A DNA stretch of 24,000 nt from Geoalkalibacter sp. (GCF_030605225.1 NZ_JAUWAV010000002.1:47365-71364); one strand, 5' to 3'. Positions 2,851 to 19,285 are shown, counted from the stretch's first letter. Numbers and translations: made by a program. The notes: generated by a model not told the origin, from the sequence alone.

Positions 2851-3336
2851 ATGCTGCCTGTCTATCGCACGATCCTCTATGCCACGGATCTTTCCGCAAA
2901 CGCCGCCCACGCCTTTCGCCACGCCATGGCCCTGGCGCGCAGCTTCGACGCGCGCCTGTGTCTTTTGCACGTGCTGCCCGAGGTGGAACCGGCGGTGCTC
3001 AATTATGTGGCGACGGTGATGGGCGAGGAGCGGCTGGCGGACATGGAACTCGGGCACAAGGCCGAGGTGCGCGAGGAAATCGCGCGGCGCATCGAGGCCT
3101 TCGCCCACGAGGAGCTGGCGGATCATCCCGAGGATCGGGCGCGCCTGGCCGAGATCCGCGTGCGTCACGGCAATCCCGCGGCGCGCATCCTCGGCGAAGC
3201 CGACGATCTGGGCGCCGATCTCATCGTGCTCGGCAGCCACGGCAAGGGGCGGCTGCATTACACCTTCCTCGGCAGCGTCGCGGAAAAAGTCTTGCATCGC
3301 GCCAAGCGGCCGGTGCTGGTGGTGCCGCTGGGATAG
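2851..3336 (+). CDS. Universal stress protein (UspA family)
   Basis: 161 aa. It starts with YRTILYATDLS and ends with the Usp ATP-binding signature DLIVLGSHGKGRLHYTFLGSVAEKVLHRAKRPVLVVP. A GAGGAG-like RBS (gaggagaccc) lies upstream of the ATG. Confidence 0.85.
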   Translation: MLPVYRTILYATDLSANAAHAFRHAMALARSFDARLCLLHVLPEVEPAVLNYVATVMGEERLADMELGHKAEVREEIARRIEAFAHEELADHPEDRARLAEIRVRHGNPAARILGEADDLGADLIVLGSHGKGRLHYTFLGSVAEKVLHRAKRPVLVVPLG

Positions 3337-3347
3337 GACGGTGGCGA

Positions 3348-5054
3348 TTAGTCGAGCGGCCGGGTTGCGGGTAGCTTGAAGCGCTCCATGAGTTCGCGCA
3401 ACAGCCGGGATTGCCCGGCGAGCTGTTCCGCGGCGGCCGCGCTTTGCTCGGCGTTGGCCGTGTTGCCTTGCGTGACCTGGTCGATCTGCCCCAGCCCGAG
3501 ATTGACCTGGCCGATGCCCTCGGCTTGCTCGCCGGTCGCGGAGGCGATTTCGGCGACCAGGTGGGTGACGCTTTCAATGCCGCCGACAATGGCGGCGAAG
3601 GATTCCTGGGTCTCGCGGGCGATGTCGGCGCCCGCCTCGGCCTTGCCTACCGCGTCGGCGATGAGCTGCGAAGTTTCCTGGGCGGCCTTGGTGCAGCGGC
3701 CGGCCAGGGTGCGGACTTCTTCCGCGACCACCGCGAAGCCGCGGCCGTGCTGCCCGGCGCGCGCCGCCTCCACGGCGGCGTTGAGGGCCAGCAGGTTGGT
3801 CTGGAAGGCGATTTCATCGATGGTCTTGATGATTTTTTCAATGTTGTGCCCGGCCTGATTGATGTTGGCCATGGCCTGGGTCATCTCGCCCATGCGCCTT
3901 TGTCCCTGCCCCGCCGCATCCTGCACTCCGCGAATCAGGCCGCTGGCCCCCGCTGCATGGTCCGCCCCCTGGCGGGTCTGGTTGCCGATTTCCTGCATGG
4001 ACGCGGAAATTTCCTGCAGTGACGCCGCCTGGTCGGTGGCGCCCTTGGAGAGGCTTTGGCTCGAAGCGGCGACCTGGTTGGCTCCGGTGGCGATCTGGTC
4101 GGCGGTTTGATGGATTTGCGCGATGATCCCCTGCAGGTCGCCGGAGAGTTTTTTCAGGGCGCCGCGCACCAGGTCGTCGGGGCCGCGTGGGCGCACCGCG
4201 CATGAGAGATCCCCCTCGGCCAGCCGGGTCAGGGTCTGGACCACCTCGGTTTGCAAGCTCTCCGCCAGTTCGTCCATGGCCCGCGCCGTGTCGCCGATTT
4301 CGTCCTGCCGGCTCATGTCCAGACGATTGACCAGACGGCCTGCGGCAAGATCCCGCATCATTGCGCGCAGGCGCAGCACCGGGGTGCGCACCAAGCGGCC
4401 CAGCAGCAGGTGAATGCAGATCAGCGCCGCCAGCAGGCCGCCCGCTCCGGTGGCGATGCCGGTTTGCATGCTGCTGCTGCGGGCCTGGTCGGCGGTTGCC
4501 GCCATGAGCCCGGCGGCCTCCTGGACATCCTTCATGCTGTAGCGCAGATAAAGCACGCCCGATAGGTCGTTGAGCTTGGCATTGACATGGCAGCGCAGGC
4601 AGTCGGCGCTCAGGTAATGGCCGCGCGCCAGAAACAGGGCATCGTCCTGTTCTCTCTGCCATAGCTCATGACCCGCGGCGACGCTGGCGCGGAAATCCTC
4701 TTCATCGAGTTGCTGGCGCAACCGCTCGCCGCGATTGGAGTAAACAATCCGGCCCTGGGGATCGGTCAGCCCGATTTCCTCGACCCCCGCGATCTTGCCC
4801 AGGTCTTGGAGCAGTTCGCGAAAGATGTCCATTTCCCCGCGCTCCAGGGAGCCGGCCGCCCCGGTCTCGAAGCTGTCAAAGACGTTGCGGGCGCGGTCGC
4901 GGCCGGCCTTGTCCAGGGCCGCAAGAGCCTGGTTGGAGAGGTCGCGCAGCAGACTCTGCATCTGGGTGGTGGCGAGGACCAGGCTGGCGCCGAAGGCGGT
5001 CAGCAAGACCAGGCCCAGCAGGCCGCCGATCTTCCATTGGATATTCAAGCGCAT
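3348..5054 (-). CDS. Methyl-accepting chemotaxis protein with periplasmic CxxCH (haem-c type) sensor domain
   Basis: 568 aa. Layout: TM1 (about res 8-30), a roughly 165-aa periplasmic loop containing CLRCH (res 152-156), TM2 (about res 200-218), a HAMP-like segment, then the canonical MCP signalling hairpin [44 protein letters not shown] lies 8 nt upstream of ATG 5054. The hydrogenase small-subunit stop is only 28 nt upstream. Confidence 0.9.
4587..4601 (-). other. CxxCH haem-c attachment motif (C152-L-R-C-H156) in the MCP periplasmic domain
   Basis: The reverse complement of 4587-4601 is TGC CTG CGC TGC CAT. It lies between the two predicted TM helices, so on the periplasmic side where cytochrome c maturation acts. 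Confidence 0.7.
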
Positions 5055-5082
5055 CGTTCAGGCTCCCGAAAGCGGTTTCGCG

Positions 5083-6003
5083 TCAATAGAGGTCGTTTTC
5101 GTTGAGGCGGAAGAAGGCGAACTGGGGATCCAGGGCAAACTCGGGACGCGCGCAGCCGATGCAGATGCTGCGCCCGCGAACGCACCAGTTGACTCCGCCG
5201 TTCCAGCCGCGCAAGGAGCAATCCGCCTGGGTCACCACGCCCTGGCAACCCATCTTGAACAGGCAACCTTCCTCGCCCAGGGCCTGGGCGAAGTGCTTTT
5301 TCTGATACTGGGCGAACAGCGGGCATTGCTCATGCAGCAAATGGCCGTAAAAACGCGTGGGACGCTGCTGGTCGTCGAGGTCGGGGAGGCCGCTTTTGAG
5401 CACCTGCATCAGGGTGCCGACCAGCCAGGCGGGATGGGTGGGGCAGCCGGGCAGGTTGATCAGGGGCCGCGCGAGTCCCGCCTGCTTCAGGGCGGCGCCG
5501 ACCCCGGCGGCGCCGGTCAGGTTGGGTGGCGCGGCGGGGACGCCGCCGAAGGCCGCGCAGGTGCCGGTGCAGACCACCGCCTGGGCCGCACGCGCGGCGC
5601 GCAGCAGTTGCTCGCTGAAATTTTCATCGGCGAACTTGCAGGCCTCCTTGATGCCGAGGGGGACCGCCCCTTCCACCACCAGGATGTAGCCGCCCTTGGC
5701 GATGGCGGTCTCGACCGCGTCCTTGGCGGCCGCTCCGGTGGCCGCCGAGAGGGTCTGGTGGAAGTAGAGCGACAGGTAGCGGGTGATGAGATCCGCGGGC
5801 CCCGGACTCTCGGAATTGAGCAGGCTGACGGAGCAGCCGGAGCAGGAAAGTCCTTGCAACCACAGAATGGGGGCGCGGCCGCCGGCCATGTCCTCGAGGG
5901 CGTCGGCCATGCGCGGCAGCAGACTGGGCTCCAACCCCAGGGAGGCCAGCAGCAGGCCGGCATCCTTGAGAAAGGTTCGACGGGTGAGTTTCATCGTGGA
6001 CAT
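5083..6003 (-). CDS. [NiFe] hydrogenase small subunit with twin-arginine (Tat) signal motif; no C-terminal membrane anchor
   Basis: 306 aa. The N-terminus reads MKLTRRTFLKDAGLLLASLGL. Proximal-cluster Cys motifs are LSCSGCS, GTCAAFGG and PGCP. Distal/medial ligands are HEQC...C-x5-C-x8-C...C-x6-CIGC. The true start may be ATG 5994 (MKLTRR...), which has AAGGA 7 nt upstream. Confidence 0.9.
   Translation of the reverse strand: MSTMKLTRRTFLKDAGLLLASLGLEPSLLPRMADALEDMAGGRAPILWLQGLSCSGCSVSLLNSESPGPADLITRYLSLYFHQTLSAATGAAAKDAVETAIAKGGYILVVEGAVPLGIKEACKFADENFSEQLLRAARAAQAVVCTGTCAAFGGVPAAPPNLTGAAGVGAALKQAGLARPLINLPGCPTHPAWLVGTLMQVLKSGLPDLDDQQRPTRFYGHLLHEQCPLFAQYQKKHFAQALGEEGCLFKMGCQGVVTQADCSLRGWNGGVNWCVRGRSICIGCARPEFALDPQFAFFRLNENDLY
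5965..5982 (-). other. Twin-arginine motif RRTFLK of the small subunit
   Basis: The reverse complement of 5965-5982 is CGT CGA ACC TTT CTC AAG (R R T F L K). A hydrophobic stretch AGLLLASLGL follows. Confidence 0.7.
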
Positions 6004-6021
6004 CCTTGTCGGTGCGGGTTG

Positions 6022-7530
6022 CTAGTGGACAGCACAGGCGATGCAGGGATCGAAGGAACGAACCACGCGCGCCACCTCAAGGCCCTTGAAGTCGGGATTG
6101 ATCGGTGTTCCCAGGAGCGCCGCCTCGACGGGTCCCGGATCCTGGCCCTGGCCGCGCGGTGAGAAGTTCCAGGTGCTGGGGACCACGCACTGGTAGCTGC
6201 CGATGCGCCCCGCGGCCAGGGTGATCCAATGGCCGAGGGCGCCGCGGGGAGCCTCGACCAGCCCTACTCCGGTGCCGGTCATGCGGTTTTGGTGAGGGGC
6301 GATGGCCGGAGCGGCCGGATCGACCTGGTCCAGCCAGTGCTCCATGCGCTCGGCGATGAGTTGTGCCTCCAAGGCCCGGGCCGCGTGACGACCCAGGGTG
6401 CTGGGTAGTTGGTGCTCGGCCAGGCCGGCTTCGCGAAGAAAGGCCGCCAGGGCCTGGGCGATGGGGCGGTGACCCGCGGCCGCCGCGACCTTCAGGCGCG
6501 CCAGGGGGCCGACCTCGTAGCTCAGGCCGTCGTAGCGTGGCGCCTTAAGCCAGGAATAGGCACCCGGCTTGTCCGGCTGGGGTACCGGCGCGGCGGCGCC
6601 TTGCGGCGGCTCCTGGCTATTGCCGCGATAAAAGCTGGCATGGGTTTCCTCGCGGATGAGGGAGAGATCCAGAGGCGCGTAGCCGTCTTGCTTGACCACG
6701 CCCGCGGGCATCCAGACCGCGTCGGCCTCGTCGAAGGCGCCGTAGGACAGATAGCGCTCCACGCCGCGCCCCGTTTCGGCGTAGGCGGGGAACAGGCGCG
6801 CCACGCGCAGGAGGTCGGGGATGTAGCAGTTTTCGATGAAGCGCTTGACGCGGCGCAGGCGGGTGCGGAAATCCTCGAGCACCGCTGCCTCGGGGAGCAG
6901 GGTCAGGCCGCCGGGCACCAGGGTCGCGGTGTGCGGAATCTTGCCCCCGAGCAGCGCCGCCATGCGGTGCGCTTCCTGGCGAATGTCCAGGGCTTCCACG
7001 TAATGGCCGAGGGCGCCGAGGTTCCACTCCGGGTTGCCGGGGTAATCCCCGGGAAGTTTGGGCAGAAACGGCGCGACGGGAAGAACGCGATTACTGTTGA
7101 GTTCTCCTCGTGCCCAATGGCGCAGATCGAGCAGCACCGGATCGCGGCCCGAGTAGTCCAGCAGCGCCTCGACCTGGACGAAATCCAGGGCCGACAGGTG
7201 ATAGAAATGCAGAATATGGCTCTGCAGGTAGTTGGCGGATAGCACCAGGGTGCGCAGCAGGCGTCCGTTGGCCGGAACCCGGAGGTCGTTGGCCGCCTCG
7301 ATGGCCTTGCAGGAGGCGATGGCATGGCTGACGGGGCACACTCCGCAGATGCGTTGGGTGATGACCGGGGCATCGAGGGGGTCGCGCCCCTTGAGCAGGG
7401 CTTCGAAGCCGCGAAACATCTCGCCCTTGCTCCAGGCTTCGATCACTTGGCCATTGTCCACGCGGGTGTCGATGCGCAGGTGACCTTCGATACGGGTGAC
7501 GGGATCGAGGATGATTTTCTGGGTCACCAT
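6022..7530 (-). CDS. [NiFe] hydrogenase large subunit (502 aa), ending at the C-terminal DPCxxCxxH motif
   Basis: Starts MVTQKIILDPVTRIEGHLRID. The N-terminal Ni-site motif is RICGVCPVSH, HFYHLSALDFV is present, and the C-terminus is SFDPCIACAVH followed directly by TAG (6022-6024). I chose ATG 7530 rather than the track's 7665 because AAGGAGAGA lies directly upstream and the homology begins there. Confidence 0.9.
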   Translation of the reverse strand: MVTQKIILDPVTRIEGHLRIDTRVDNGQVIEAWSKGEMFRGFEALLKGRDPLDAPVITQRICGVCPVSHAIASCKAIEAANDLRVPANGRLLRTLVLSANYLQSHILHFYHLSALDFVQVEALLDYSGRDPVLLDLRHWARGELNSNRVLPVAPFLPKLPGDYPGNPEWNLGALGHYVEALDIRQEAHRMAALLGGKIPHTATLVPGGLTLLPEAAVLEDFRTRLRRVKRFIENCYIPDLLRVARLFPAYAETGRGVERYLSYGAFDEADAVWMPAGVVKQDGYAPLDLSLIREETHASFYRGNSQEPPQGAAAPVPQPDKPGAYSWLKAPRYDGLSYEVGPLARLKVAAAAGHRPIAQALAAFLREAGLAEHQLPSTLGRHAARALEAQLIAERMEHWLDQVDPAAPAIAPHQNRMTGTGVGLVEAPRGALGHWITLAAGRIGSYQCVVPSTWNFSPRGQGQDPGPVEAALLGTPINPDFKGLEVARVVRSFDPCIACAVH

Positions 7531-7648
7531 TCTCTCCTTGGGTTGTTGGGGGGCGGCGGAGTCAGGGCAGGCGCGCACCTTGATGTCTACTCTTTGTGCA
7601 ATGCTTTTTGCCGATCTTGTAAAATCGCGCATACCGGCTGGAGTGTAG

Positions 7649-7664
7649 AGCAAAAAAGCTGCCA
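7649..7664 (-). promoter_or_regulatory. Candidate sigma-54 (RpoN) -24/-12 promoter for the hydrogenase-MCP operon
   Basis: The minus strand reads TGGCAG-CTTTT-TTGCT, against the consensus TGGCAC-N5-TTGCW. The GG-N10-GC spacing is exact and there is one mismatch. The predicted transcription start is near 7638, about 108 nt upstream of ATG 7530. Confidence 0.45.
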
Positions 7665-7874
7665 AGGTTAATTTTGTTTCATTTTATTTGCGCATCTGCC
7701 TGATTGATTGAATACAAAGCTGCGGCGTGTTTATTTTGGGGGTGGGGTGGGCATCAGGTTTCGTGGGGCGGATATTTTGTCAAAACACCGTTTGTTCAGC
7801 CGTCAAATAACGGTCTCTTATGTGGCAATGATTTGACAGGGTCCGACGGGGACGACCACCTCTGTCCGGCCTGC

Positions 7875-11818: not shown

Positions 11819-11896
11819 AAGGCGCCGTTCATTGCGTGCGAAGGGCGGGATGCTATACTTTGTCCCGTCGCGCGCGCAGGAAACGGCGCCTTTTTT
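11819..11896 (+). terminator. Long compound hairpin followed by T6, read as an intrinsic terminator of the lipoprotein gene
   Basis: Three stem segments: AAGGCGCCGTT (11819-11829) pairs with AACGGCGCCTT (11882-11892); GCGTGCG (11834-11840) pairs with CGCGCGC (11871-11877, one G:U); GGCGGGA (11844-11850) pairs with TCCCGTC (11863-11869, one G:U). The loop is 12 nt and TTTTTT follows at 11891-11896. Confidence 0.5.
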
Positions 11897-11925
11897 ATGA
11901 CCCTTTCGCGGATTGCTCGGACCCC

Positions 11926-14646
<2,721 letters not shown>

Positions 14647-14777
14647 GCACGAATTTCTGGTGTTCTTGAGGCGTGACCGGTTTTTCATGCATGGTCGGCC
14701 GCTGCGGCATCCTGGTCGGTGAAAAAGCGTCTTCATAGTTTATTCGTGTGGATTCATGGCTATAAAAAGGAGTGGTC

Positions 14778-15941
14778 ATGGAGATTAAAGTTCCCGAGGT
14801 GGGGGAGTCGGTGTTCGAGGCGCAAATCGCCCAATGGCATAAAAAGGATGGCGAAAAGGTGCGCGAGGGCGATCTGCTCTGCGAACTGGAGACCGACAAG
14901 GTGTCCTTGGAGCTCAACGCCGATGGCGACGGCATCCTGCGCATCGGCGCCAAGGAGGGCGAGACGGTCAAGGTCGGCGCCGTCATCGGCACCATCGAGG
15001 AAAGCGAGGAGGCGGCTTCGGGCGAGTCGGAGCCGAAGGAAGAGCCCAAGAGGGAAGAAGGGAAGAAGGAAGAACAACCCGCAGCCAAGGCCGCCCTGGC
15101 GCCCGCGCCCGAGAAGACGCGGGCCGAGAAGGCCGAACCTGAGAAAGCCGAGACAAAAGTGACGCGGGAACAGCCGCGGGCCGAAGCGGCCGCCGCGGAA
15201 AGCGCCGAGAAACCGGCCGCGTCCGCAAAGACGAAGGATGATGAGCGCGTCACCCGCCGGCCCATGAGCCCGATTCGCAAGCGCATCGCCGAGCGCCTGC
15301 TCGCCGCGCGTCAGCAGACCGCCATGCTCACCACCTTCAACGAGGCCGACATGAGCCGCGTGCTGGCCCTGCGTCAGAAGCACCAGGAGAGCTTCGTCAA
15401 GCGCCACGGCGTCAAGCTCGGCCTCATGTCCTTTTTCGTCAAGGCGAGCGTCGAGGCCCTCAAGGAATTTCCCGAGGTCAATGCCCAGATCGACGGCGAC
15501 GATCTCGTTTATCACCATTACTACGACATCGGCATCGCCGTGGGCGCCGAAAAAGGCCTGGTGGTGCCGGTGCTGCGCGGCTGCGAGGGGCTGAGCTTCG
15601 CCGAGATCGAGCAGCAGCTTGCCGCCTACGTCGAGAAGATCAAGAACAACAAGCTCGCCTTGGCCGATCTCGAAGGGGGCACCTTCACCATCACCAACGG
15701 CGGCGTCTACGGTTCCATCAATTCCACGCCGATTCTCAACCCACCGCAAAGCGCGGTGCTGGGCCTGCACGCCATTCAGGAGCGCCCCGTGGCGCGCGCC
15801 GGAGAAATCCTCATCCGCCCCATGATGAACCTGGCCCTCTCCTACGATCATCGCATCATCGACGGTCGCCAGGCGGTGGGCTTTCTCAAGCGCATCAAGG
15901 ATTTGGTGGAAGAGCCCGAAGAGATGCTGCTGGAGATGTGA
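14778..15941 (+). CDS. sucB: Dihydrolipoyllysine-residue succinyltransferase, E2 of 2-oxoglutarate dehydrogenase
   Basis: 387 aa from ATG 14778, with AAAGGAG 5 nt upstream. The lipoyl domain is MEIKVPEVGESV...LCELETDKVSLEL. The catalytic domain contains MSPIRKRIAERL...FTITNGGVYGS...LSYDHRIIDGRQAV. Confidence 0.93.
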   Translation: MEIKVPEVGESVFEAQIAQWHKKDGEKVREGDLLCELETDKVSLELNADGDGILRIGAKEGETVKVGAVIGTIEESEEAASGESEPKEEPKREEGKKEEQPAAKAALAPAPEKTRAEKAEPEKAETKVTREQPRAEAAAAESAEKPAASAKTKDDERVTRRPMSPIRKRIAERLLAARQQTAMLTTFNEADMSRVLALRQKHQESFVKRHGVKLGLMSFFVKASVEALKEFPEVNAQIDGDDLVYHHYYDIGIAVGAEKGLVVPVLRGCEGLSFAEIEQQLAAYVEKIKNNKLALADLEGGTFTITNGGVYGSINSTPILNPPQSAVLGLHAIQERPVARAGEILIRPMMNLALSYDHRIIDGRQAVGFLKRIKDLVEEPEEMLLEM

Positions 15942-16370: not shown

Positions 16371-16949
16371 ATGAATCTTGTCTGTCTGCTCGGCAGTCCC
16401 CGGCCCCGGGGCAACAGCACCAGCCTGGCCCGTCATCTCTGCGAGAGCGCAGAGCATCTCGGCGCCGACGTGCGGGTGTTCGCCCTCAACGAGCTCGATT
16501 ATCGCGGCTGCCAGGCCTGCTATGCTTGCAAGCGCAAGCTCGATCACTGCCTTCTCGACGATGATCTGCGCGAAGTGCTGGCCGCGGTCCTGGCCGCCGA
16601 TGCCCTGGTGCTCTCCTCGCCCATCTATTTCGGCGACATCAGCGCCCAGCTCAAGGGCTTCATCGACCGCACCTTCAGCTATCTGGTGCCCGACTACTAC
16701 GCCAATCCCCAGCCGAGCCGCCTGCCGCCGGACAAAAAACTCGTCATGATCCTCACCCAGGGCGTGGCCGACGAGCAGGTGTTCGCCGATGTGTTTCCGC
16801 GCTACGAAGGTTTTCTCAAGTGGGAAGGCTTTGCCGAGAGCCGTCTGATTCGTGCCTGCGGCGTGACGCCCGCCACCCGGCCGGACAAGCTTGGGCCCTG
16901 GCTGGAGCAGGCGCAGGCGGCCGCGCGCTGGTTGATGGGCGCGCCCTAG
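16371..16949 (+). CDS. Flavodoxin-like fold NAD(P)H-dependent FMN reductase / iron-sulfur flavoprotein-like protein
   Basis: 192 aa from ATG 16371. Starts MNLVCLLGSPRPRGNSTSLARHL. It carries a Cys cluster (CQACYACKRKLDHC) and SSPIYFGDISAQLKGFIDR. GGGAGAG lies upstream. Confidence 0.7.
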   Translation: MNLVCLLGSPRPRGNSTSLARHLCESAEHLGADVRVFALNELDYRGCQACYACKRKLDHCLLDDDLREVLAAVLAADALVLSSPIYFGDISAQLKGFIDRTFSYLVPDYYANPQPSRLPPDKKLVMILTQGVADEQVFADVFPRYEGFLKWEGFAESRLIRACGVTPATRPDKLGPWLEQAQAAARWLMGAP

Positions 16950-16996
16950 CCGAATCCGGCGTTGCTTACACCCCTGTCTTGATACGGACAGCCCTG

Positions 16997-19285
16997 ATGC
17001 GGATATGTCTATTTTCGGCGGCGCTGGTTTTTTGGCTCGCGCTTGCGTGGAGTCTGGCGCCCGCTCCGGCGCGCGGCGCGAAGCCCGAGGCCCTTGCGCC
17101 CCTGGTGTTGCAGCTCAAGTGGTCCCATCAATTTCAGTTCGCCGGTTATTACGCGGCTCTTGAACAAGGCTATTACCGAGAAGCCGGGCTGGAGGTTGAG
17201 TTGCGCGAGGCGCAGCCCGGCCTGGATCTCGTCGCCGAACTGGTCGAAGGACGGGCCGATTATCTGGTGAGCGGTCCCAACGCCTTGCTGGCCCGCGCCA
17301 GGCAGCAGCCGGTGGTGGCTCTGGCCGCCATTTTCCAGCACTCTCCCCTGGTCCTGGTGGCCCGCCGGGACGCGCGGATTCTCTCGCCGGCCGATCTGGT
17401 CGGCCGCCGCGTCATGTTCATCCCCGAAAGCGATTCGGAGTTTCTCGCCATGTGCCGCAACGAGGGCGTCGCCCTCGACGGTCTGATTGCGGTGGCGCAC
17501 AGCTGGGATATCCGGGATCTGGCCGATGGCCGAGTCGACGCCATGAGCGCCTATCTCACCGATGTCCCTTTCCTGCTGCAACAAGAAGGGGTGCCCTTCA
17601 CCATCCTGCGTCCGCAGACCTACGGCATCGACTTTTACGGCGACGGCCTCTTCACCACGGAACGGGAAATCGCCAGACATCCCGCGCGCGTCAAGGCGTT
17701 TCGCGAGGCCAGCCTGCGCGGCTGGGACTACGCCCTGCGGCATCCCGAGGAAATCGTCGACCTGATTCTCGCCAAATACTCCCGGCGCCTGTCCCGCGAA
17801 GCCCTGCTCTTCGAGGCGCAGGCCACGCGCGAGCTGATCCTGCCCCATCTGGTCGAGATCGGGCACATGAATCCCGGGCGCTGGCGGCATATCGCCGACA
17901 CCTACGCGGCTTTGGAGATGATTCCGCGGGGGTTCTCCCTGGACGGGTTTCTCCATGAGGATCGGGCGCCGCAGTTCTGGACCCCGCAGCGGCTCCATTG
18001 GCTGTGGGTCACGGTTTTTCTTTCCCTGCTGGCGGCGGCGGTGCTGCTGTATTTCAACCGGCGTCTGCGTCTGGCGGTTCAGGAGCGCACCCGCGACCTG
18101 TCCCTGACCAATACCGAGCTGACCATCGAGATCGCCGAGCGGCGCAAAAGCAATGAGGCCCTGCAACAAAGTGAGCGGCGCTTCCGGGCCCTGGTCGACA
18201 ATATCCCCGGCGCGGTCTATCGCTGCGCCCTGGACGGCGACTGGACCATGGATTTCGTCAGCGATGCGGTCGAGGATCTCACCGGGTATCCCGCCGCGGA
18301 TTTTGCCGTCCAGCGCACCCGATCCCTGGCCGGCCTCATCGAGACCGAGGAGCGCGCGGCTCTGGATGAGCGGCTTCGCGACCATCTGGGACGACAGGCG
18401 CCCTGCACCCTGGAGTATCGCATCCGCCATGCCGACGGCGGCATCCGCTGGGTGCATGATAAAAGCGTGGGTGTGGTGGGAGATGATGGGCTCGGCTATC
18501 GCGAAGGGTTGATGCTGGACATCACCGACCGCAAGCAGGCCGAGGAATTGATGCTCAAGCTCGATCGCATGAAAAGCGAGTTTATTTCCATCGCCGCCCA
18601 TGAATTGCGCACGCCCCTGACGTCCATCATCGGCTATGCCGAGTGCCTGCTCGACCCGGCGATCGCCGCCGGCCTTGCCCAAGAACAACGGCGGGAATTT
18701 CTTCAGGAGATCCGGGCCAAGGGGGAGGCCCTGGCCGCCATCATCGACGATCTGCTCGACATCAGCCGCATCGAGCGGGGCGAGCCGCTGCGCATGCAGA
18801 TCGCGCCCTGCGATCTGTCCCTGCTGATCGCCAAGGTGGTGCGCGCCTTCGAAATGCATGCCCCGCGTCACCGCTTCGAGGTACGCCTGGATGCCGTCGC
18901 GCCCTCTGTTCTGCGCGTGGACCACAACCGCATGGTTCAGGTGTTTGAAAATCTTCTCAGCAACGCGGTGAAATATTCGCCGCAAGGCGGGCGGATTCTG
19001 GTCGAGGGCCAGTTGGTCGGAGATGCTTATCGGACCGTCGTGAGCGATGAGGGCATCGGCATGTCCGCGGAACAGGCCCGCCGGATCTTCGACAAGTTCT
19101 ATCGGGCCGACACCTCCAGCACGGCCGTCGGCGGCCTGGGGCTGGGCATGAGCATCGTCCAGCAGATCGTCAAGGCCCACGCGGGCACCATCGAGGTGCA
19201 AAGCGCCCCCGGCCGGGGAACCCGGGTCGCCGTGGTCCTGCCCTTGAGCCATGCGGAGGAGGCCGCAAATCCCGCGCCGGGGTGA
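16997..19285 (+). CDS. Sensor histidine kinase: signal/TM, periplasmic NMT1/NitT-TauT-like solute-binding domain, TM, PAS, HisKA, HATPase_c
   Basis: 762 aa from ATG 16997. The periplasmic block is LVLQLKWSHQFQFAGYYAALEQGYYREAGLEVELRE. The second TM is LHWLWVTVFLSLLAAAVLLYF. A coiled coil is followed by a PAS region (FRALVDNIPGAVYRC...IRWVHDK). The H-box is FISIAAHELRTPLTSI, the N-box is LLSNAVKYSP, and the G-boxes are DEGIGM and GGLGLGMSIV. Confidence 0.88.
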   Translation: MRICLFSAALVFWLALAWSLAPAPARGAKPEALAPLVLQLKWSHQFQFAGYYAALEQGYYREAGLEVELREAQPGLDLVAELVEGRADYLVSGPNALLARARQQPVVALAAIFQHSPLVLVARRDARILSPADLVGRRVMFIPESDSEFLAMCRNEGVALDGLIAVAHSWDIRDLADGRVDAMSAYLTDVPFLLQQEGVPFTILRPQTYGIDFYGDGLFTTEREIARHPARVKAFREASLRGWDYALRHPEEIVDLILAKYSRRLSREALLFEAQATRELILPHLVEIGHMNPGRWRHIADTYAALEMIPRGFSLDGFLHEDRAPQFWTPQRLHWLWVTVFLSLLAAAVLLYFNRRLRLAVQERTRDLSLTNTELTIEIAERRKSNEALQQSERRFRALVDNIPGAVYRCALDGDWTMDFVSDAVEDLTGYPAADFAVQRTRSLAGLIETEERAALDERLRDHLGRQAPCTLEYRIRHADGGIRWVHDKSVGVVGDDGLGYREGLMLDITDRKQAEELMLKLDRMKSEFISIAAHELRTPLTSIIGYAECLLDPAIAAGLAQEQRREFLQEIRAKGEALAAIIDDLLDISRIERGEPLRMQIAPCDLSLLIAKVVRAFEMHAPRHRFEVRLDAVAPSVLRVDHNRMVQVFENLLSNAVKYSPQGGRILVEGQLVGDAYRTVVSDEGIGMSAEQARRIFDKFYRADTSSTAVGGLGLGMSIVQQIVKAHAGTIEVQSAPGRGTRVAVVLPLSHAEEAANPAPG

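Follow-up and report, generated by a model that had tools for sequence, protein, structure and literature searches.

The hydrogenase database HydDB recognizes three sensory classes of hydrogenase, namely the histidine-kinase-linked [NiFe] group 2b, the diguanylate-cyclase-linked [NiFe] group 2c (putative) and the chemotactic [FeFe] group C2 (putative), and it holds no chemotactic or periplasmic sensory class of [NiFe] enzymes (PMC5037454). The present analysis concerns a stretch of 24,000 nucleotides (nt) from Geoalkalibacter sp. (GCF_030605225.1, NZ_JAUWAV010000002.1:47365-71364; this whole stretch is called the window hereafter), in which the genes of the large (L) and small (S) subunits of a [NiFe] hydrogenase are followed by the gene of a methyl-accepting chemotaxis protein (MCP) whose periplasmic domain is predicted to carry a single c-type haem. 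The trio is probably an undescribed device for sensing H2 and swimming in response, because it recurs across phyla. The evidence base for this whole reading is computational. An earlier note made from the sequence alone (the original prediction) had suggested such an arrangement; it named the HydDB sensory classes correctly, and it knew of no described periplasmic [NiFe]-to-MCP system. No description of a hydrogenase-sensor module of this kind was found in the open-access literature on H2 taxis, on haem chemoreceptors with hydrogenases or on Geoalkalibacter.

The group 2b enzymes, represented by HoxBC of Cupriavidus necator with HoxJ and by HupUV of Rhodobacter with HupT, are like the window type in having an L subunit without C-terminal extension, an adjoining transducer gene and a histidine-kinase output (found here in one variant locus, L009). 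In group 2b the hydrogenase is dedicated to feeding the transducer, and the same is proposed here. These enzymes are cytoplasmic and lack a twin-arginine (Tat) signal, whereas a Tat signal is conserved in the window type. Their gas channel is narrowed, in HoxC by Ile and Phe in place of Val and Leu together with altered residues near the active site, whereas the window enzyme retains the standard residues. Their partner is a cytoplasmic PAS kinase, unlike the periplasmic haem-c sCache domain of an MCP found here. The [FeFe] group C2 shares with the window the genetic link between hydrogenase and MCP as well as a proposed role in H2 sensing (PMC5037454), but it has an [FeFe] metal centre, belongs to another protein family, is cytoplasmic, has no haem receptor and is uncharacterized.

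With regard to the enzyme, HysAB of Desulfovibrio vulgaris and HynAB of Desulfovibrio fructosovorans (periplasmic [NiFe] and [NiFeSe] enzymes, group 1a/1b) are alike to the window type in their Tat signal, solubility, His-ligated distal cluster and standard Val/Leu gas channel. The match of the window S to HysB runs through the signal peptide, and four Cys are available for the medial cluster, a trait of the [NiFeSe] enzymes. The window type differs from the Desulfovibrio enzymes by its gene order (L then S, not S then L), by the absence of an extension on L and hence of an endopeptidase step, and by an active-site Cys in place of selenocysteine; it also has no cytochrome c3-type partner, and the gene of a haem-sensor transducer adjoins the hydrogenase genes.

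With regard to the receptor, the Geobacter proteins GSU0582 and GSU0935 (Protein Data Bank (PDB) entries 3b47 and 3b42) share with the window protein the MCP type, a periplasmic PDC/sCache domain of ~130-165 residues, a single CxxCH motif and a Met located ~80 residues upstream, but there is no detectable sequence homology between them and the window family has a signature of its own (GSLERGEM…DCxRCH). DcrA of D. vulgaris is an MCP of the same haem-c sensor kind. The genes of GSU0582 and GSU0935 are presumably not adjacent to hydrogenase genes, and the literature examined on these two Geobacter proteins makes no mention of a hydrogenase link. The haem of GSU0935 involves Cys140, Cys143 and His144, with a distal Met60 that is bound in the reduced state and released on oxidation, and the midpoint potentials are -251 mV for GSU0935 and -156 mV for GSU0582 (PMC8396549). 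Another related group, sCache_haem/DUF3365 (Tll0287-like, PF11845), is likewise characterized by an extracytoplasmic Cache-type fold with covalent c-type haem in signalling proteins; unlike the protein described here, its members are reported as nitric oxide (NO) sensors or stand-alone redox modules and are not hydrogenase-linked (PMC12889525), and the Pfam model misses the window protein. Two further reports touch on the subject: a 2025 neighbourhood survey lists in a table an MCPsignal cluster (87 genes) among the neighbours of [NiFe] hydrogenases, without discussing it (PMC12727194), and H2 taxis was reported in the archaeon Methanococcus maripaludis, with no receptor identified (PMC3817446), which is the sole H2-taxis report that was found.

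The module occupies the following positions of the window:

6022..7530, minus strand: [NiFe] hydrogenase large subunit (L), 502 amino acids (aa), C-terminus DPCIACAVH without C-terminal extension; Pfam NiFeSe_Hases 1.8e-137
5083..6003, minus strand: hydrogenase small subunit (S), 306 aa (303 aa from Met4, 5994); Pfam Oxidored_q6 and NiFe_hyd_SSU_C; ligands for three iron-sulfur (FeS) clusters; no anchor
5899..6003, minus strand: Tat signal peptide MSTMKLTRRTFLKDAGLLLASLGLEPSLLPRMADA with A-x-A cleavage motif at the N-terminus of S, conserved in homologues
3348..5054, minus strand: MCP, 568 aa; Pfam HAMP and MCPsignal
4464..4961, minus strand: periplasmic sensor domain of the MCP (residues 32-197), predicted haem-c sCache/PDC-type fold, family absent from Pfam
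4587..4601, minus strand: CLRCH haem-c attachment motif of the MCP (Cys152, Cys155, His156), conserved in the family
4830..4853, minus strand: GSLERGEM motif of the MCP with Met75, candidate distal haem ligand by its invariance and by the layout of GSU0935

The three minus-strand genes lie where the original prediction had placed them, separated by spacers of 18 nt (6004-6021) and 28 nt (5055-5082), and the motifs that it cited (RIEGH, RICGVCPVSH, DPCIACAVH, RRTFLK and CLRCH) are all read directly from the sequence. The open frame of L spans 6022-7665 from an upstream TTG, and the gene starts at the ATG at 7530, after AAGGAGAG, and stops at 6022-6024; public gene calls take the next codon as the start, which gives 501 aa. 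As for S, the open reading frame of 306 aa stands, but its start does not: Met4 (5994, 303 aa) is the likelier start, as it is in the homologues and in public gene calls, and the L-S spacer then measures 27 nt. Neither spacer contains a terminator-like site, in keeping with the earlier claim that no hairpin lies between the genes; the four such sites found are all intragenic, compared to 4.2 in shuffled sequences. From this layout the L, S and MCP genes almost certainly form one operon and are transcribed jointly. The earlier statement that the unit encodes no cytochrome b, cytochrome c3, HybA, hyp or endopeptidase holds for a larger region, since no cytochrome, hyp or endopeptidase gene was found anywhere within the 24-kb window. 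The absence of an endopeptidase gene follows from the absence of a C-terminal extension on L.

The identity of the [NiFe] pair is given by RICGVC and DPCIAC in L and by the proximal, medial and distal FeS ligands in S. The alignment of S with the [NiFeSe] small subunit of D. vulgaris takes in all the ligand positions, which are invariant in eight homologues; they indicate a proximal cluster with four Cys, a medial cluster also with four Cys (C262, C274, C281 and C284, which by alignment resembles the [NiFeSe] enzymes having three [4Fe-4S] clusters) and a distal cluster with one His and three Cys. In the Tat signal of the eight homologues the RR, F and L residues are invariant, as is A33, and position 35 is A or S; the RRxF motif was found in all sensor-linked loci. 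A scan for a hydrophobic membrane anchor in S found no hydrophobic window of 19 residues. Motif reading, alignment and this hydrophobicity scan thus bear out the 502-aa L and the anchorless S with its RRTFLK motif and three-cluster ligand set, as first described, and the Pfam models that had been suggested (NiFeSe_Hases, Oxidored_q6, NiFe_hyd_SSU_C, HAMP and MCPsignal) all match. The original prediction was silent on the missing C-terminal extension, which is the one trait that L has here in common with the cytoplasmic regulatory hydrogenases: L terminates exactly at the His of DPCIACAVH, whereas its conventional relatives have 14-16 further residues. In every one of the ~50 sensor-linked loci examined that have a complete L gene, the order is L then S, L ends in DPCxxCxxH and the twin-arginine signal is kept. 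Both the L-then-S order and the extension-less L are unusual for a Tat-exported enzyme.

The closest solved relatives of both subunits are the periplasmic [NiFe]/[NiFeSe] enzymes of Desulfovibrio (E 4e-107 and 3e-66), and the nearest PDB and NCBIfam matches are of the group 1a/1b type (NF033181 gives 569 bits, against a cut-off of 600). As in group 1, S carries a Tat signal, and this signal shares homology with the one on HysB of D. vulgaris. The cleaved C-terminal extension of the group 1 L is missing in the window and in all sensor-linked homologues with a complete L gene, and so is a co-encoded respiratory partner (cytochrome b, cytochrome c3, HybA, Isp), of which the 24-kb window has none; genes for cytochrome c3, HybA or cytochrome b were likewise found in none of the annotated related loci. 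With group 2b the enzyme shares the extension-less L, and it has neither the S without signal peptide nor the narrowed gas channel of that group. By sequence, then, the enzyme is of the group 1 periplasmic lineage but lacks two traits typical of it (a respiratory partner, and the extension that an endopeptidase removes), and it would appear to work like a regulatory hydrogenase, although in another compartment and through another kind of partner. The possibility of a disguised regulatory hydrogenase was rejected, given that the gas-channel residues and the neighbours of the active site are standard.

The architecture first described for the receptor (568 aa, a periplasmic loop of ~165 aa and a single CLRCH) was confirmed. 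Hydrophobic segments are located at residues ~8-31 and ~198-227, and the two Cys of CLRCH are the only Cys of the intervening loop. Pfam places HAMP at residues 217-268 (1.2e-10) and MCPsignal at residues 378-528 (1.6e-47), with the conserved hairpin motif present. The sensor domain on its own gave nothing in a word-indexed homology search, and a profile of seven sequences was needed, which retrieved mostly fragments; the family was then defined by a HMMER scan of 1.84e9 representative proteins (E<=1e-3), with conservation calculated from 118 full-length members. It comprises 259 clusters, and the domain is always N-terminal. CxxCH is in the same place in 136 of the 139 family matches (two of the three without the motif are short fragments); among the full-length members there is no variation at G73, M75, C155 and H156, and conservation at C152 is 90% or higher. 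The outputs of 117 full-length members include 111 MCPs and three hybrid histidine kinases, the latter carrying PAS, receiver and Hpt domains. No sequence match to the sensor domain was found in Pfam, even in a permissive scan, or in the PDB, including searches with profiles. PF11845, the Tll0287-like model that had been proposed as a search, failed to match the window domain at E<=10, and one homologue gave E=0.13.

The AlphaFold2 model of the sensor domain (22-sequence alignment) has a predicted local distance difference test score (pLDDT) of 92.3. It has a long helix at the N-terminus and another that starts at the invariant Met, together with a sheet of five strands; CxxCH is located on a short helix preceding the last strand. 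Foldseek matched this model to WalK, CitA, DctB and DcuS, to GSU0935 (3b42, E 1.3e-4) and to GSU0582 (3b47, E 2.2e-3), so that a sCache/PDC fold resembling GSU0935 is predicted. The spacing from Met to His is 81 residues in the window (Met75/Cys152/Cys155/His156) and 84 in GSU0935. In sequence and modelled fold alike, the periplasmic domain bears all the hallmarks of a haem-c redox sensor with His/Met ligands.

A functional connection between enzyme and receptor is supported by their linkage across genomes and metagenomes. The window belongs to a Geoalkalibacter-like member of the Desulfuromonadales, and a locus from a Geoalkalibacter metagenome-assembled genome (L011) is 94-97% identical over the module. 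In Geoalkalibacter ferrihydriticus L is 76% identical and the flanks are the same as in the window (usp, DctM, T2SS-B, AAA), and therefore that pair alone proves nothing. The L-S-MCP order was found in six of seven looked-up relatives, with unrelated flanks and with L identities down to 50%. A sensor-led scan with one genome per species gave 147 loci, of which 80 were kept and 75 were evaluable; S (and L) lies directly upstream of the sensor gene in 42 of these 75. A hydrogenase-led scan of metagenomes with an L profile retrieved relatives at 44-67% identity that fall into three classes. In class A (no extension, L then S) the sensor gene adjoins the hydrogenase in all 25 evaluable loci (those with enough flanking DNA), compared to none of 36 in class B (conventional, extension of 14-16 aa, S then L, 44-50% identity) and none of five in class C (no extension, no Tat signal, S then L). 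Synteny of this hydrogenase clade with MCP genes in relatives had been set beforehand by the original prediction as one of the tests on which it should stand or fall, and the counts from the relatives, the genome loci and the metagenomes (25/25 versus 0/36) uphold it.

Linked loci are carried by Desulfuromonadales, Deferrisomatales, Desulfobacterales, Syntrophobacteraceae and Verrucomicrobiota; these represent at least five orders and two phyla, and the genomic surroundings of the trio differ in dozens of cases. In 46 loci the gap that separates S from the sensor gene amounts to ~4 nt in the median and ranges from -10 to 40, with one of 360. The L subunit and the sensor also co-evolve: pairwise distances of L and sensor correlate with r=0.89, compared to r=0.90 for the obligate partners L and S, although shared ancestry feeds both values.

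With moderate confidence, we read the three genes as a single operon for a chemoreceptor that takes H2 as its input in the periplasm. L and S would assemble in the cytoplasm with no endopeptidase step, since L has no C-terminal extension, and the dimer would be exported by the Tat pathway on the signal peptide of S and remain soluble in the periplasm. The conserved RRxF and A-x-A motifs, the His-ligated distal cluster, the lack of an anchor and the lack of a cytochrome partner in the loci fit a soluble periplasmic electron donor. There the enzyme would oxidize H2 and pass the electrons through its three FeS clusters, with the distal cluster presumably donating directly, to the single c-type haem that the sensor domain of the MCP is predicted to bind. 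By analogy with GSU0935 and GSU0582, Met75 may become the sixth ligand, across the haem from His156, when the haem is reduced, and oxidation may free it again. A movement of the N-terminal helices could then be transmitted through the second transmembrane segment and HAMP to the signalling domain, which would change CheA activity and hence swimming. The haem may also equilibrate with the local H2/H+ couple, so that the receptor would read the partial pressure of H2 without a separate oxidant; this is conceivable because [NiFe] catalysis is reversible and known haem-c sensors titrate at ~-150 to -250 mV.

Several observations weigh against this H2-input reading. The gas-channel and active-site residues of L are those of the standard uptake type (Val in CGVC, Leu in FYHL, and His in RIEGH and RICGVCPVSH, by alignment to D. 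fructosovorans). The likeness to the GSU0582/GSU0935 haem sensors holds for the fold and for the ligand layout (Foldseek and Met…CxxCH), but not for sequence homology: 3b42 and 3b47 were not among the matches in PDB profile searches with seven and with 28 sequences, even at E<=10. In Malonomonas rubra (L003) L and S are present and the MCP is absent. Conversely, ~30 of the 33 unlinked sensor loci form one clade (Desulfuromusa, Geopsychrobacteraceae, Pelovirga and Trichloromonas; L023-L055 and L081) that keeps the sensor-MCP with its CxxCH and has no adjacent hydrogenase. A whole sub-lineage thus retains the receptor alone, and therefore the haem redox sensor can work without a co-encoded hydrogenase; the clade adjoins the hydrogenase-linked sensors of the Desulfuromonadales in a neighbour-joining tree and is read as a secondary loss of the linkage. 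Additionally, in a crude neighbour-joining tree the sensor-linked hydrogenases are not recovered as a single clade, and two groups of them meet the conventional enzymes at a near-trifurcation.

The most serious competing explanation, which we nevertheless consider unlikely, is that the enzyme is an ordinary energy-conserving uptake hydrogenase whose acceptor is a multihaem cytochrome encoded elsewhere, with the MCP as a general redox or energy-taxis sensor of the cytochrome pool that is coupled to H2 indirectly. The Desulfuromonadales are rich in periplasmic cytochromes, and this explanation would readily accommodate the standard residues of the active site and gas channel, the Desulfovibrio respiratory enzymes as closest solved relatives, the whole lineage that has the same sensor-MCP without adjacent hydrogenase and the solitary L-S pair of Malonomonas rubra. 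It accounts poorly, however, for an association with the sensor in 25/25 loci of this hydrogenase type versus 0/36 of the conventional one, for genes that nearly overlap across phyla and for a co-variation of L with the sensor as tight as that of L with S. The histidine-kinase variant also preserves the L-S-sensor order, none of the loci examined has a gene for cytochrome c3, HybA or cytochrome b, and the lost extension and inverted gene order separate this type from the respiratory group 1 enzymes.

A role in gas sensing seems more improbable still. According to this proposal, the receptor haem would sense a diatomic gas (NO, carbon monoxide (CO) or O2) and the hydrogenase would be no more than a dedicated H2-driven reductase that keeps the haem ferrous and competent for ligands, or returns it to that state. 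In favour of this, the periplasm is devoid of NAD(P)H-type reductants. GSU0582 and GSU0935 take up CO in the reduced form and NO in either redox state, with displacement of the Met (PMC8396549), and for the unrelated sCache_haem (DUF3365) sensors NO is the reported signal (PMC12889525). On the other hand, none of the annotated loci has genes for gas metabolism or detoxification alongside the module, and a strictly conserved Met together with a dedicated three-cluster hydrogenase would be a costly supply of one electron. Moreover, standard [NiFe] enzymes are inhibited by CO and O2, and therefore the reductase would fail exactly when it is needed. As for a meaningless adjacency, due to chance or to hitch-hiking within one lineage, the flanks common to the window and G. 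ferrihydriticus (usp, DctM, T2SS-B and AAA) agree with it, but elsewhere none of these flanks surrounds the trio, which is spread over at least five orders and two phyla, and its class-specificity in the metagenome control is perfect; this explanation is refuted for practical purposes.

To our knowledge, the sensory hydrogenases known or proposed so far are cytoplasmic and bind their transducer directly, and we know of no bacterial receptor for H2, a gas that is a central currency of anaerobic communities. The module is a concrete and testable candidate receptor for H2 taxis and is carried by a named, tractable Geoalkalibacter species. If the H2-input reading is true, it would represent a new route of H2 signalling, by electron transfer between proteins in the periplasm. 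A wider proposal, which we put forward tentatively and with some doubt, is that these enzymes make up a new functional [NiFe] class of periplasmic, Tat-exported, extension-less 'chemotactic' H2 sensors, whose only job would be to equilibrate the c-haem of a dedicated sCache receptor (in most cases an MCP, in some a kinase) with the ambient H2/H+ couple; the trio would then be the first molecularly defined bacterial H2 chemoreceptor, occurring in Desulfobacterota, Verrucomicrobiota and others. In metagenomes, such hydrogenases probably go into the count of respiratory uptake enzymes. A Tat-exported [NiFe] enzyme with an extension-less L also bears on the proof-reading of cofactor insertion before export, and the sensor family (~259 clusters), which is missing from Pfam, could join the catalogue of haem-based sensors.

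Variants of the module were observed in several loci. In L009 (1-3124) a histidine kinase with a HisKA motif, to which this sensor domain is fused, comes after L and S in place of the MCP. In L082 (6001-10121) and L115 (2940-5997) the genes are rearranged, the sensor-MCP coming first and then L (then S), and therefore the linkage outlasts a change of gene order. The module of L010 (1611-9863) has been inactivated by two insertion sequences, with a DDE transposase within L and a second transposase within the MCP gene. A conserved 382-aa protein without Pfam match is encoded after the module in the Malonomonas-like lineage (L003, 6620-7768; L005, 11375-12523), and in L005 a CheW-receiver gene lies just past it. 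In L003 the MCP was lost between S and the gene of this 382-aa protein, where a gap of ~300 nt remains. Among the sensors without hydrogenase, the gene (e.g., L028 5830-7656, L054 5908-7656) is flanked on one side by miaA together with a CCA/polyA-polymerase gene, and on the other by a second MCP (CZB and hemerythrin) or cheA; L027 retains a fragment of L upstream of the sensor-MCP.

The class C loci (L151 3611-8908, L167 157-4277, L162, L163 and L169) encode a group-1-like [NiFe] hydrogenase with ~45% L identity, without extension or Tat signal and in the order S then L. They lie within Wood-Ljungdahl clusters (acetyl-CoA synthase/carbon monoxide dehydrogenase beta and delta, pterin-binding protein), directly upstream of MetV/MetF. 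The gene context and the lack of a Tat signal therefore suggest a cytoplasmic hydrogenase coupled to the methylene-tetrahydrofolate reductase MetV/MetF.

Upstream and downstream of the three genes, the window has the following features:

7649..7664, minus strand: sigma-54-type promoter candidate TGGCAG-N5-TTGCT, ~120 nt upstream of the L start (tentative)
7774..7813, minus strand: conserved upstream block CCGTTATTTGACGG...GTGTTTTGACAAAAT, candidate site for an enhancer-binding protein (function inferred)
2851-3336, plus strand: usp (Usp protein), convergent neighbour of the MCP gene, as originally described

The sigma-54-type motif has a single match in the window, where 0.13 would be expected. 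It is kept upstream of L in L011, L001, L092 and L093 and is absent from 58 more distant loci (present in 5/63 in total), and it may tentatively be considered a lineage-specific feature. A sigma-54 promoter as a general feature of the module was ruled out, since it is confined to the closest relatives. The block at 7774-7813 is nearly invariant in the window, in L011 and in G. ferrihydriticus (L001), while the surrounding intergenic DNA has diverged, and it looks like a candidate enhancer-binding-protein site.

Other genes of the window are unrelated to the module. They comprise a TRAP-type DctM fusion with an NMT1_3 binding protein (57-2833), the E1/E2 components of 2-oxoglutarate dehydrogenase (11836-15941) and, on the plus strand (16820-19285), a sensor histidine kinase with an NMT1/THI5-like periplasmic-binding domain followed by PAS, HisKA and HATPase domains.

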